From: a virus
DNA: 32,290 bases
Direction: 5' to 3' (one strand)
IMG/VR virus record: IMGVR_UViG_3300028800_001532
The position numbers and the translations under genes were made by a program. The notes under the pieces are model-generated. The model saw only the letters and a program-made list of their open reading frames with translations. It searched no databases and had not been told where the DNA came from. Below are positions 1,093 through 30,826 of this stretch, one piece after another (position 1 is the first letter of the stretch; every line of letters starts with the position of its first letter).

Positions 1093-1135
1093 GTGGAACT
1101 AGTACACCGACCGGTGTAATAATGGGAGACATGAC
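1093..1135. promoter_or_regulatory. divergent promoter region with a GGTGTA element on each strand
   Basis: On the plus strand GGTGTA lies about 1113-1118 and is followed by ataatgggagac then ATG. On the minus strand TACACC lies about 1103-1108, which reads GGTGTA-ctagttccac-ATG toward the 868..1092 gene. Confidence 0.55.
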
Positions 1136-1186
1136 GTGCCTGGACTCGGCAGAGAATCGCCCCCACAACCCCGAGCGGGGCTAACG

Positions 1187-2212
1187 ATGGCCCGAACGGC
1201 GGCTAAGAACGCGGATCCCAAGAACTACTACGGGCTGCTCGAAGTGAGCCCGCGGGCGCGTGCTTCGATCATCAACTCGGCGTACCGCACCCTGGCCAAG
1301 GAAACGCACCCGGACAGCCCTGGGGGCGATCTGGCGCGGTTCAGGGCCATCACGGCGGCATACGACGTCCTCAGCAACGCCGACAAGCGGGCCGAGTACG
1401 ACACGGGATTGCGGCCGGGGGTCGGAACCGTCATCGGAAACTACGAGGTCGAGTCGGTCATTGCTGAAGGAGGCTTCGGCACGACGTACAAGGGCCGGCA
1501 CGTCATCACGGAGGAGCCTGTGTGCATCAAGCACTGCTCCGAGGTGTCGGTCATGCACGACGCGGTCTTGATTGCCGAGGCCAAGTCGATCTGGGACATG
1601 TGCCACTATGCGCTGCCCGCGATGCGGGACATGCAGCGGCTGGAGGACAACTCGCTGGCGCTCATCATGAGCTACATCCCGGGCCCGACGCTCGAACAGG
1701 TCGTCGAGAAGGCGGGCAAGCTCGAACCCGAGGACGTGGCGTGGATCACAGACCGGATCCTCAACGTGCTGCTCTACCTGCACCACCACGGGATCGTGCA
1801 CGGGGATCTCAAGCCACAGAACGTGATCGTGCAGCCGGACCAGCACAGCCTCGTGCTGGTGGACTTCGGTCTCACGCTGGTCAAGCCGACGTCCTCGACG
1901 AAGTCCATGGGGTACACGCCGTACTTCGCGCCCCCGGAGCAGATCGACGGCAACACGCTCTTGCCGGCCTCGGACTTCTACAGCCTGGGGATGATCATGA
2001 TCTACACTCTCTCGGGCGGGGACATGAAGGCGGTCGAGAAGCTCAAGGTGCCGACGACAGCGCCCGACGCCCTGTGCAGCTTCATCAAGAGGCTGATCGT
2101 CAAGGACGTGCTTGCGCGTCCGCAGGGTGACCTCTGGGAAGAGTTCCGCGAGGTGCGCAAGAAGGCGTTCGGTCGTGACCGCAGTGGTATGAAGCCCATC
2201 GCAGGGCTGTAG
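1187..2212 (+). CDS. DnaJ J-domain fused to a Ser/Thr protein kinase
   Basis: The N-terminus reads YYGLLEV...AYRTLAKETHPDSPGG...AAYDVLSNADKRAEYD, a J domain with an HPD motif. The kinase motifs are GGFGTTYKG, CIKH, HGDLKPQN, VDFGL and FAPPE. ATG 1187 is preferred over GTG 1136 because the first 17 codons from 1136 have low GC3. Confidence 0.8.
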   Translation: MARTAAKNADPKNYYGLLEVSPRARASIINSAYRTLAKETHPDSPGGDLARFRAITAAYDVLSNADKRAEYDTGLRPGVGTVIGNYEVESVIAEGGFGTTYKGRHVITEEPVCIKHCSEVSVMHDAVLIAEAKSIWDMCHYALPAMRDMQRLEDNSLALIMSYIPGPTLEQVVEKAGKLEPEDVAWITDRILNVLLYLHHHGIVHGDLKPQNVIVQPDQHSLVLVDFGLTLVKPTSSTKSMGYTPYFAPPEQIDGNTLLPASDFYSLGMIMIYTLSGGDMKAVEKLKVPTTAPDALCSFIKRLIVKDVLARPQGDLWEEFREVRKKAFGRDRSGMKPIAGL

Positions 2213-2223
2213 AGGAGATCATC

Positions 2224-3180
2224 ATGGCAGAGACAGCCGACTTCGATCCCGGGCCCTGGCGCGGCCACGACTTCAAGGATGCGCGCAAGGCGTACGACAA
2301 GCACGCTGGCCGCAGCTACTCGGAGGCGACCACCAAGGGGGTCGTCGCCAAGGACCTCGTGCCGAACGGTCTGACGACCGACAGCGAGAACCCGCTCGTC
2401 GTCCTATGCGACGTGACGGGCTCGATGGGCGAGTGGCCGGGCGTCATCTTCTCGAAGCTGCCGTACCTCGACATCGAGGGCAAGAGCTACCTCGGGCCCA
2501 CGATGGAGACCAGCTTCGGGGCCATCGGGGATGCGCACAAGGGCGACACGTACCCTCTCCAGGTGCGGCAGTTCGACAAGGGTCAGAAGCTCAGCGACCA
2601 CCTCAAGGCCCTCGTCATCGAGGGCAAGGGTGGCAACGACCACTGCGAGTCCTACGAGCTGGCCGCGCTCTACTACGCCCGCAAGGTGCAGATGCCCGCA
2701 GCAAAGGGCAAGCCCATCATGATCTTCATCGGCGACGAGGGTCTGCACGACTACGTCACCAAGGCCATGGCGGCAGACATCCATGTGCGGCTGACCGAGG
2801 CCCGCATCGACACGCCCGATATCTTCAAGGAGCTGACGCGCAAGTTCTCGGTCTACGTGGTGCGCAAGCCCTACGGCGACTCCTACGAGCGGATCATCCA
2901 CCAGCAGTGGGAGAAGCTCATCGGCGAGGACCATGTGCTGATGCTGCCCGGTGCGGACCGTGTGGTGGACGTCATCTTCGGCATCCTCGCGCACGAGACC
3001 GGCAAGGTGGACTACTTCCGCGAGGAGCTGGAAGGCCGTCAGAAGCCCGAGCAAGTGGCGACGGTCTACAAGTCGCTCCAGACCATCCACGCGCTGCCCC
3101 CGAAGACCCCCAAGAAGAAGGGCATGAGCGTCATGCACCTGCCTGAGGGCAAGAAGACCAAGGGTCTTCTCAACAAGTAG
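2224..3180 (+). CDS. von Willebrand factor A (vWA) domain protein
   Basis: A MIDAS-like motif LVVLCDVTGSMGEW is present. The Shine-Dalgarno site GAGGAG lies 6 nt upstream. The gene starts 11 nt after the kinase stop. Confidence 0.7.
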   Translation: MAETADFDPGPWRGHDFKDARKAYDKHAGRSYSEATTKGVVAKDLVPNGLTTDSENPLVVLCDVTGSMGEWPGVIFSKLPYLDIEGKSYLGPTMETSFGAIGDAHKGDTYPLQVRQFDKGQKLSDHLKALVIEGKGGNDHCESYELAALYYARKVQMPAAKGKPIMIFIGDEGLHDYVTKAMAADIHVRLTEARIDTPDIFKELTRKFSVYVVRKPYGDSYERIIHQQWEKLIGEDHVLMLPGADRVVDVIFGILAHETGKVDYFREELEGRQKPEQVATVYKSLQTIHALPPKTPKKKGMSVMHLPEGKKTKGLLNK

Positions 3181-29427: not shown

Positions 29428-29643
29428 GTGAAGCCCTTCCTCGCCGAGTTCGTGCTCCTGTACTTCAAACGTGGAGGCGCCCTTGGGACCGAAACATGGC
29501 CCGCGTGGTTGCGGCGCCAACGGTCGTACATCTTTCGCTCCCAGCACCCCGACTACCAGGCCCTCGTTGCCGAAATCGGGGCGGCCCTCAAGGACGCGGG
29601 CGAGTGTGACACCGAAAGCAAAGCCCCCACGGAAGATCCGTAG
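29428..29643 (+). CDS. small hypothetical protein (71 aa)
   Basis: The GTG start lies immediately after the ARH stop. This is the last gene of the operon. Confidence 0.35.
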   Translation: MKPFLAEFVLLYFKRGGALGTETWPAWLRRQRSYIFRSQHPDYQALVAEIGAALKDAGECDTESKAPTEDP

Positions 29644-29686
29644 GGGCTTCGGGTCCATCACACGGTGATGGTCTGTAGCAGGGCTA

Positions 29687-30721
29687 TTAGGCCTTGCTGC
29701 GGGGTGCCGGGGTGCTCGTGCCGTTGTTGCTCGTGACGGCCATGAGCTGGTCGAACGCATCGCGGCGCGACGATCCGTCGATCGCGCTCTTGGCGATCGT
29801 CTCGATCTTGCTGTTGGCCTCAGCGAGCTGCTGCTGGAGCCTTGTGTTGGCCTCCTGCGCCGCGTGGAGCTGCTGGTTGAGGTTCGTGATGGTCGCCGCC
29901 TGGATGGTGGCCTGTGCCTGGAAGTCCTTGGACTGGAGCTGGTGCGCGTGCTCCAGGTTGCTCTTGAGCGAGTTGAGGGCGATGGCCTTCTCGGCATCGA
30001 AGTCCTTGCGGAGCTTGATCGGCAGCTCCTGGCTCTCCTGACGGAGCTTGGTGACCTCGTTCTCCTGCACGCGGAGGGTCTCCTCGCGCTCCCGCCAGTT
30101 CTTTTCCAGGTTGGCCTGGCGATCCACCGCCTCACGGTTCTTGAGGATGAGCTGCTGCTGGAACGTGTCGTCGGCCGTACGGCGCTCCTGGGCCTTGCGG
30201 TACTCGTACTCGTCCTTCTCACGCTGGACCTGGGTTGCGTAGGCCACCTCACGCTCCCTGCGGGCCTTCTCGCGCTCGATCTCCTGCTCCTGGTAGGAGC
30301 GCTCCCGGGCGACGTACTGCTCATCGAGCTGCTTGGACTTCGCGGTGTAGTCCTGGACCAGCATGTCGATGGCGGTCGCCGCCACGTCGATCTTGTGCAG
30401 GTTCTCCAGCTCGGCCTTTTCCAGCTCGACGGCCTCGGTCACCTGCTCAAGCTCCGTCACCTTCGTGAGGAGCTGCTCGTTGACGCCAGCGAGGGCCCTC
30501 TGGACATCGAGTCCGAGCCGGGTGACGCGAGTGACCGCGTCCTCGACCGTGAGGCCCTGGACGGCAGTGCGGACCGTGCTGGCCCGATTGCGGGTTGCCG
30601 CAGCGGTCTTCGGATCGACGGCTTCCGCGCTCGCGACCCCCTGCTGGATATCCGTGAACTCGTCTTGCACCTCAGTGCGGGTGCGTGTCGATCGGGTGGT
30701 CTTCTTCTTGGGGGTAGTCAT
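29687..30721 (-). CDS. coiled-coil protein (344 aa) with a basic N-terminus
   Basis: The protein is rich in Q, E, R and A throughout and has a heptad-like appearance. The N-terminus reads TTPKKKTTRSTRTR. The Shine-Dalgarno site AAGGAG lies upstream. A GGTGTA element lies about 40 nt upstream. Confidence 0.55.
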   Translation of the reverse strand: MTTPKKKTTRSTRTRTEVQDEFTDIQQGVASAEAVDPKTAAATRNRASTVRTAVQGLTVEDAVTRVTRLGLDVQRALAGVNEQLLTKVTELEQVTEAVELEKAELENLHKIDVAATAIDMLVQDYTAKSKQLDEQYVARERSYQEQEIEREKARREREVAYATQVQREKDEYEYRKAQERRTADDTFQQQLILKNREAVDRQANLEKNWREREETLRVQENEVTKLRQESQELPIKLRKDFDAEKAIALNSLKSNLEHAHQLQSKDFQAQATIQAATITNLNQQLHAAQEANTRLQQQLAEANSKIETIAKSAIDGSSRRDAFDQLMAVTSNNGTSTPAPRSKA

Positions 30722-30826
30722 GGATCGCTCCTTGTCGTGGGTCTCTGATCCGACGCGCCCCTACACCACAATTCAGCTCCCGGACCGTTTTTTCTTCCAT
30801 TCAGTTTGGTGTAACAAGGAGTCTGA

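Follow-up and report, generated by a model that had tools for sequence, protein, structure and literature searches.

A short, oriented heptamer, YGGTGTA (hereafter M1), recurs before gene starts on both strands of a 32,290-nt stretch of viral DNA (IMG/VR record IMGVR_UViG_3300028800_001532), and its distribution indicated that it is very probably a promoter. The whole of this stretch, hereafter the window, corresponds to positions 11368-43657 of a 218,019-bp metagenomic contig (ENA ERZ27245399 k141_1829800), and N10 denotes 10 nt between GGTGTA and the start codon. The reading that we favor, to which we would assign a probability of roughly 0.6, is that M1 serves as the sole recognition element of a phage-clade-specific, -35-less promoter class, from which transcription would start about 10 nt downstream, often at the A of the ATG; judged from the sequence, leaderless mRNAs are plausible.

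GGTGTA was found 24 times in the window as against 5.68 ± 2.14 times in shuffled sequences, and none of the 100 shuffles reached 24; the enrichment over shuffled sequence presupposed by the initial annotation, which had described GGTGTA followed by about 10 nt and an ATG, was thus confirmed. The heptamer YGGTGTA was present 19 times where 3.0 copies were expected, and the combination GGTGTA-N10-ATG 8 times where 0.07 were expected. When the window was joined to its flanks to give a composite of 51.4 kb carrying the contig's own gene calls, 24 of the 39 GGTGTA copies proved to be intergenic, while the intergenic share of the sequence was 18%. About six of the 24 window copies, namely those at 4848, 14136(-), 15210(-), 28032(-), 28436, and 30344, look incidental because they are placed inside or antisense to genes.

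Spacing to the start codon was assessed in two collections, set A (~165 kb of this phage and its relatives) and set B (134 kb of independent sequence, collected by means of another motif), which together (~300 kb) contain 196 GGTGTA sites. An ATG followed GGTGTA at N9 in 21 sites, at N10 in 36, at N11 in 10, and at N12 and N13 in 8 each, against a background of 3.0 per position. GTG was found at the same five spacings in 7, 7, 4, 2, and 5 sites (background 3.2 per position), whereas TTG and CTG occurred at the background level only. This start-codon profile, with ATG, less often GTG, and no excess of TTG or CTG, agrees with the RTG start rule described for leaderless mRNAs (PMC4633059). Exclusive use of ATG, seen in 10 of 10 composite genes, was considered as a diagnostic and dropped, as the pooled data show GTG at N9-10 too. 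Among the open reading frames (ORFs) opened by ATGs at N9-11 and closing within the sequence, 56 of 64 (88%) were at least 60 codons long, compared with 37% for all ATGs; these ATGs are real gene starts. The ATG spacing pattern was replicated in set B, and none of the 59 other permutations of the hexamer gave an ATG spacing peak. Since, in addition, no shuffle reached the observed counts, chance, codon usage, or base composition is extremely unlikely to account for the pattern, even though a few copies are plain Gly-Val codons within genes, such as the pair at 28436, which is kept as coding sequence in the syntenic relative L007.

A logo of the 21 N10 sites showed GGTGTA to be invariant at -16 to -11, with C at -17 in 19 sites and C at -1 in 17; if the A of the ATG is taken as +1, T-12 and A-11 are present in all 21. 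No conserved -35 element was seen in this logo, its information being limited to -17 to -11 and -1, and neither the sigma-54 -24/-12 pattern nor the 'AAC' motif of extracytoplasmic-function (ECF) sigma factors was found there when sought. Between -60 and +1, nothing besides M1 was conserved that could be a promoter, and a subset of sites carried a weak GTTAC about 7 nt upstream. The base at -1 was C in 28 of the 36 pooled N10 sites but in 39 of the 78 other genes of the composite; a pyrimidine at -1 before a purine at +1, as in C(-1)/A(+1), is the usual context of a transcription start. With TA at -12/-11, the discriminator would measure 6 nt at N10, 5 nt at N9, and 7 nt at N11; this is the order normally preferred by bacterial holoenzymes.

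M1 was also strict. ATG followed at N9-11 after 34% of GGTGTA copies and after 2-12% of the copies of 18 single-mismatch variants (background 3.8%), the highest of these variant values stemming from just 8-27 copies. The association with starts further depended on the base before GGTGTA, being 47% with C, 22% with T, and ~10% with A or G. In sites without a nearby ATG, no clear signal of a start-like base preference was obtained at N10 or N11, because this set is mixed with incidental intragenic copies. These results altered several details of the initial annotation, although the site coordinates that it had listed were all correct. CTAGT or ATAGT, which it had described as frequent in the spacer, is present in three spacers only, and the TAnnnT-type hexamer derived from it disagrees with position -7 (G 13, A 6, T 1, C 1), where 19 of the 21 sites have a purine and a single one has T. 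GTGGTA-N10-ATG at 18604-18622 (-), which had been taken as a variant of the element, is probably not a member: the GTGGTA at 18606 was not counted because it has two mismatches and is not conserved in L007, whose ortholog is without such a site, and no single-mismatch variant was associated with starts. The spacer of about 10 nt held exactly at 1092(-), 8904(-), 21497(-), 6420, and 21725, whereas 9159(-) has N11 and 30827 has N13. Four further sites (6779, 31729(-), 1113, and 24781) had been overlooked.

The placement of M1 provided a further line of evidence. All four clear divergent junctions of the window (1108/1113, 9176/9217, 21513/21709, and 30767/30808) carry M1 on both sides. At the first, the copy at 1090-1108 (-), a CGGTGTA with N10 to ATG 1092 and a spacer without a Shine-Dalgarno (SD) sequence, heads a leftward unit (gene 868-1092), and its motif (1103-1108) stands back to back with the copy at 1113-1138 (+), with 4 nt between them; downstream of the latter, ATG 1131 at N12 opens a 17-codon ORF, and GTG 1136 at N17 is in frame with the DnaJ-Ser/Thr kinase ORF (to 2212). 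At the second, the copy at 9157-9176 (-), with N11 to ATG 9159 (gene 8932-9159), likewise heads a leftward unit and lies 40 nt from its divergent partner at 9217. At the third, the copies at 21495-21513 (-) and 21709-21727 (+) have N10 before ATG 21497 and ATG 21725, respectively, both without SD. At the fourth, the copy at 30719-30767 (-) is placed 40 nt before ATG 30721 of a gene for a 344-aa protein (29687-30721) with an AAGGAG SD, and its divergent partner at 30808-30829 (+), again 40 nt apart, has N13 to ATG 30827 with AAGGAG in the spacer. Across all data, 19 divergent M1 pairs were counted, 9 of them with just 2-6 nt between the copies. As most close pairs have an RTG at N8-13 on both sides, the start codons of the divergent genes lie 34-40 nt apart, and between such genes there are only two heptamers and two spacers.

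M1 also directly follows a terminator. In the segment 24731-24803 (+), a terminator whose stem measures 16 bp occupies 24731-24780, and its T-tract is adjoined immediately by M1 at 24781-24786, with ATG 24801 at N14; the same arrangement was found in L007. Scans for canonical sigma-70 promoters and for terminators gave nothing above shuffles, the strong terminator at 24731 excepted. As a side observation, ATG 24801 opens an unannotated ORF of 42 codons (24801-24929, +; MEWKASARHWEIVREWARTLSKERLEAFINVLHDISTRARGR), which is conserved in L007 with 44 codons and begins 14-15 nt after GGTGTA.

In other cases, M1 stands at a greater distance from a gene that has its own SD. As noted initially, such copies lie 40-47 nt upstream: besides the 40 nt before ATG 30721(-), the copy at 22070-22125 (+) is placed 47 nt before ATG 22123 of the major vault protein (MVP) gene, where a 5' untranslated region (5'UTR) of ~37 nt is predicted. 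In relatives, M1 is often found 22-30 nt upstream of an SD and ATG. SD content differed with position in the transcription unit. Genes at the head of a unit (868, 8932, 21255, and 21725; N10-11) have no SD besides the motif's own GGTG, while internal M1 genes retain a GAGG- or GGAGG-like run near the ATG, as read-through transcripts would need such runs for their translation. The internal copies comprise those at 6779-6796 (+), which has N9 with GGAGG in the spacer before ATG 6794 (gene 6794-7408) and whose motif overlaps the preceding stop codon TAG 6783-6785; at 8902-8920 (-), with N10 before ATG 8904 (gene 8350-8904); and at 31711-31729 (-), with N10 before the EF-Ts ATG 31713.

This placement points to a start signal acting at the DNA level rather than at the RNA level, and it bears on two alternatives. 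M1 might be a translation-initiation signal in the mRNA, to which the ribosome or a phage factor binds; the fixed short distance to start codons, chiefly ATG, the complementarity of GGTG to the anti-SD CACC, and the translation genes of the phage (EF-Ts, PTH2, and SpoU methylase) would all suit such a role. However, the invariant C, T, and A of M1 have no anti-SD partner at the 16S 3' end, and GGTG, at 12 nt from the ATG, lies too far upstream to act as an SD. Moreover, M1 also precedes, by 40-47 or 22-30 nt, genes whose own SD is well placed, and it is found at divergent junctions and right after a terminator, where an upstream transcript is not expected; most internal genes have normal SDs and no M1 (53 of 78 genes). 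We thus regard a translation signal as unlikely, even though the start-associated sequences (SASs) of cluster K mycobacteriophages, which it would resemble, are likewise short, asymmetric, highly conserved, and associated with ATG (PMC3203893). A strict, short, oriented motif at a fixed distance to AUG could equally mark an RNA-processing site, with a phage or host endoribonuclease cutting near GGUGUA to leave leaderless or short-leader mRNAs, and the MazF-type generation of leaderless mRNAs offers a known precedent (cited in PMC4633059). Terminator adjacency and the divergent junctions object here too, a nuclease candidate was not identified, and an endoribonuclease would not usually cut as far as 10 nt from the site that it recognizes; this explanation is accordingly very unlikely.

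Conservation of the element was examined in syntenic relatives, which comprise L007 (a 570-kb JGI contig), the more distant L006 (a 529-kb IMG/VR contig), and further IMG/VR and JGI contigs. GGTGTA is kept in L007 at eight orthologous window sites, namely 31729(-), 30808, 30767(-), 25158, 24781, 22070, 21709, and 21513(-). At 30767 both the site and the leader are conserved, whereas at 30808 the spacing in L007 is N12. The N10 spacers themselves differ between the window and L007 at a kept spacing (ctagtccggt/agtatccctc, cggggttccc/catgatcctc, and atagtccttc/ttagcaaccc), the sites at 21513(-) and 21709 being among those with diverged spacers. Between these two sites, the divergent intergenic region of 227 nt also contains a block (21560-21700; GCCCTCGTCAGCAGCAAGTCC...) that is near-identical in L007. 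In L006, 15 M1 copies were found in 22 kb, most of them 8-12 nt before starts.

Inverted pairs of M1 brought up a further alternative, in which a DNA-binding repressor or activator of the phage would use M1 at gene starts as its operator or half-site, like the asymmetric stoperators of cluster A mycobacteriophages, and promoter function would fall to other elements. Pairs of the form TACACC-N2-6-GGTGTA are frequent, and extreme invariance is what a site for a specific binding protein typically shows. The pair TACACC-N5-GGTGTA at 25815-25831 (both strands), which reads GGTACACC-CACAC-GGTGTACC, has no gene start on either side, neither copy being followed by a start codon at N8-13; its minus copy is kept in L007 (16596+), and the conserved copy points antisense into the 3' end of the neighboring gene. 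This particular pair may drive an antisense or small RNA, or may indeed be an operator. For the element as a whole, though, the spacing of inverted pairs varies (2, 4, 5, 6, and 21-55 nt), which is ill-suited to one dimeric binder, the sites are mostly single, and no other promoter candidate is conserved between -60 and +1. Since the sharp N9-11 register to the start codon also calls for an explanation linked to initiation, we consider a general operator function improbable.

The mechanism that would best accommodate a -35-less promoter is as follows. RNA polymerase, together with a specificity factor dedicated to the phage or an unusual host sigma factor, would bind the heptamer at about -17 to -11 and initiate 9-11 nt after the final A of M1. 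At most copies, the start point would coincide with the A (sometimes G) of the start codon, and the mRNA would be leaderless or have a leader of few nucleotides, with translation from a 5'-terminal AUG or GUG. At other copies, including those of the MVP and 344-aa protein genes, the same start point would be followed by a leader of 12-47 nt with an ordinary SD. We infer transcription initiation, its exact start point, and the nature of the polymerase or sigma factor from what was observed of the motif, its invariance, spacing, placement, and conservation. As for the proposal made initially, of a single promoter class with a start at or next to the ATG, spacing, placement, and conservation fit, and it gained from the pyrimidine at -1, the lack of SD at unit-first genes, the divergent junctions, the terminator adjacency, and the SD-led genes 40-47 nt away. 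Its analogy to an extended -10 element failed in the details. M1 is not a canonical -10 or extended -10, because it has no T at -7, its TG abuts TA instead of forming TGnTA, its spacer is not AT-rich, and mismatches are not tolerated; this strictness rather resembles that of promoters read by dedicated phage factors.

Several points weigh against a -35-less promoter. The case for it is positional throughout, and the motif is non-canonical as a -10 with its purine at -7, TG abutting TA, and spacer that is not AT-rich. A crude search for sigma factor and RNA polymerase genes, made in six-frame ORFs from ~300 kb of incomplete genomes, gave no such gene and no match to RpoD regions 2-4, the beta' DFDGD motif, or T7-like motif B. 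G-rich sequence at -9 to -7, with GAGG-like runs, is found in many N9-11 spacers; a strictly leaderless mRNA would have no use for such runs, which would make sense only if they served read-through transcripts. In another motif class of this phage, M3 (described below), the core lies 2 nt nearer the ATG; transcription at M1 may therefore begin 1-3 nt before the ATG. Inverted pairs without a downstream gene, such as 25815-25831, count on the same side. Contig ends, considered as possible transcript 5' ends, yielded metagenome fragments only, and a literature search for GGTGTA returned primers only. In a more far-reaching version of the promoter, a specificity factor encoded by the phage would read the heptamer to produce a truly leaderless regulon, which retuning of the ribosome via EF-Ts, PTH2, and the SpoU-type methylase would favor. 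This version appears quite unlikely; if true, it would amount to a coupled takeover of transcription and translation in a clade of 0.2-0.57-Mb phages.

Among known systems, the late promoter of T4, TATAAATA, which is read through gp55, is a short -35-less element, and the phiKZ late promoter TATG belongs to the same group of -35-less phage promoters as the late promoters of T4 and AR9. Like these, M1 is the only conserved determinant, is short, lies near -10 at a fixed distance to the start, and has no conserved -35. The late promoter of AR9 reads AACA-N6-T-A/G(+1), again with no -35, and M1 would be, as in AR9, one class among several in the promoter set of a large phage (PMC5312081). M1 differs in sequence, in being GC-rich, and in its position at -17 to -11 instead of the -11 to -8 of AR9. 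Furthermore, the 5'UTRs of AR9 measure 26-491 nt and leaderless transcripts were not found in phiKZ, whereas most M1 copies are placed right against the start codon. The extended -10 of sigma-70 promoters (TGnTATAAT) has in common with M1 a TG just upstream of the TA at about -12/-11 and, seemingly, the ability to work without a -35. In contrast, the TG of M1 lies at -14/-13 and abuts TA, as against -15/-14, so that the minority N11 sites alone would fit; M1 moreover lacks T-7, has an invariant GG and a preceding pyrimidine, and shows zero mismatch tolerance.

With the leaderless promoters of Actinobacteria and Deinococcus, which carry a TANNNT -10 box about 6-7 nt before the RTG, M1 shares a fixed distance to the start, the use of RTG rather than TTG, and unit-first genes with no SD besides the motif's GGTG. 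Leaderless mRNAs of mycobacteria follow an RTG start rule, and the tiny 5'-terminal ORFs known from leaderless genes have counterparts here, such as the 10-codon ORF at 9233 (PMC4633059). Unlike the TANNNT promoters, M1 is GGTGTA with a purine at -7, is invariant instead of degenerate, and is found in a phage clade. It was, moreover, not seen in intergenic regions of metagenome-assembled genomes (MAGs) of the candidate host clade, albeit in a small sample. The SAS of cluster K mycobacteriophages, GGGATAGGAGCCC, is separated from the start by 3-7 bp, includes the AGGAG core of an SD, and is of unproven function (PMC3203893). Although M1 is similarly short, asymmetric, highly conserved, specific to a phage clade, and located beside mostly ATG starts, it is set 9-11 nt away from the start, is without an SD core, is found up to 40-47 nt before an SD-led gene, and is present on both strands at divergent junctions.

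A phage-specific -35-less promoter giving leaderless mRNAs is already well known as a kind; what M1 would add is a new promoter consensus, unusually strict and compact, in an uncharacterized clade of huge phages. If it is indeed a promoter, the sites would furnish the first transcription map for this uncultivated clade (218-570-kb contigs) with mostly ORFan genes, correct gene starts, and expose small ORFs missed by gene callers. A compact element of 7 bp would then set where transcription begins as well as where translation does. Leaderless expression on a systematic scale would set these phages apart from phiKZ, where it was not found, and from AR9 with its leaders, and would provide a link to how huge phages with translation genes redirect host protein synthesis.

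Start assignment can be illustrated with the copy at 6404-6422 (+), which has N10 before ATG 6420 and thereby opens an ORF of 121 codons (6420-6785); by the GGTGTA-N9/10-ATG rule, the gene called automatically at GTG 6474 probably starts at ATG 6420. By the same rule, the composite gene -8309..-7992(-) probably starts 15 codons later than called (rule at -8037), and that called at -3267 probably starts 11 codons earlier (rule at -3300). The N10 ATGs at 9233 and 25174, recognized initially as not being the starts of annotated genes, do open only short ORFs of 10 and 32 codons. The former (site 9217-9265, +) ends with TGA 9263-9265, which overlaps the Ham1 ATG 9265 as TGATG, and an 11-codon mini-ORF of the relative L029, at ~2905(-), has the same TGATG overlap with its next gene; this arrangement suggests that translation of the downstream gene is coupled to that of a leaderless ORF ahead of it. 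The latter (site 25158-25176, +) is out of frame with the SD-led gene 25218-25553, and L007 keeps its N10 ATG. Membership is uncertain for the CGGTGTA at 32175-32180 (-), which lies within an upstream ORF of 56 aa, 51 nt before the start at 32123.

M1 is accompanied in this genome by two other classes of motif that recur upstream of genes. M2 (GCGCGTGACGTGCGCGC) has the core TGCGCGC within GCGCGTGACGTGCGCGCGATC and occurs 20 times on the plus strand and 9 times on the minus strand. About 14 copies are intergenic (4211, 4429, 4739, 5107, 13105, 13379, 13916, 14259, 15162, 15779, 16309, 16572, 16926, and 17245, all +), and these form two arrays, at 4.2-5.2 kb and 13.1-17.3 kb; most lie 20-41 nt before a small plus-strand gene that is led by an SD. 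This layout resembles the promoter-stem-loop cassettes in hyperplastic regions of T4-type phages, and M2 may be another promoter or regulatory class. M3, with the structure TTGATT-N12-GGGTTGTAGT-N6-ATG, is sigma-70-like, with a -35-like box, and is set close against the ATG; it was found at 25862-25889 of the window (locus 25862-25898) and, in the composite, at the window-equivalent positions 36555(-), 36650, and 38108. It recurs many times in relatives (L007, L028, L030, L033, L046, and L047-L073) and has diverged to TGATGGATC-N~18-GGTAGTAGGGAC-ATG in L006, while a scan of GTDB genomes with the M3 pattern gave 2 chance matches only. In two relatives (L052, 7580-, and L054, 855+), the downstream part of M3 reads GGGGTGTAG, GGTGTAG replacing GTTGTAG; given these two copies, M1 and M3 share a GTGTA/TTGTA core. 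M1 is scarce in M3-rich loci, as distinct promoter classes would be expected to show, and the three classes in different genome regions look like a temporal promoter program. Annotation of ~50 proteins with Pfam and PHROG yielded ORFans in the main, and because of this a temporal class is not assignable to the genes of M1, M2, or M3.

The window itself has a G+C content of 63%, as does the phage, and contains small, tightly packed genes on both strands. Scans of it for tRNA genes and Rfam families found no matches, and megablast likewise found no match for a 25-kb query among 50,697 phage records. Since the syntenic relatives lie on contigs of 529-570 kb, the GGTGTA element belongs to a clade of huge phages. 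Translation-related genes carried by the phage are those for EF-Ts (31051-31713, minus), a SpoU-type methylase (window 11702-12268), and the peptidyl-tRNA hydrolase PTH2 (L002, 11843-12394); other recognizable genes of the window encode the DnaJ-Ser/Thr kinase fusion (1136-2212, +), an HDAC-like protein, Ham1, a HisG-like protein, and an ADP-ribosylglycohydrolase.

The nearest named relatives of the phage EF-Ts are those of Myxococcota/Polyangiales (55-58% identity), which tentatively hints at a Myxococcota host; the corresponding MAG contigs have a G+C of 71-72% as against 63% in the phage. In Myxococcota-like MAG stretches (20 kb around rpsB-tsf; L074 and L076, a small sample), GGTGTA was present inside genes only. 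These MAGs have several starts that look leaderless or short-leadered with GTGCTA(nnnn), a TGnTA box resembling an extended -10, e.g., GGTGCTAGATCGAGACC-ATG, and similar boxes before rpsB. In this very small sample from MAGs that are not known to be the host, the GTGCTA box and the phage GGTGTA are one register apart.

Scans of IMG/VR with the MVP protein and with an 80-aa protein did not find relatives, and a scan of GTDB genomes with a 721-aa protein was empty. The MVP homolog (22123-24711, +; 862 aa) matches Pfam MVP_shoulder (6e-28) and Vault_3 and is flanked by the GGTGTA site and the terminator with the 16-bp stem; a vault-protein homolog in a phage is unusual by itself. L007 is without the MVP gene, yet keeps the promoter-like site and the terminator ~130 nt apart (17503-17650, -), so that the gene looks like a cargo insertion, and a short RNA may be made from the interval between the two in L007.

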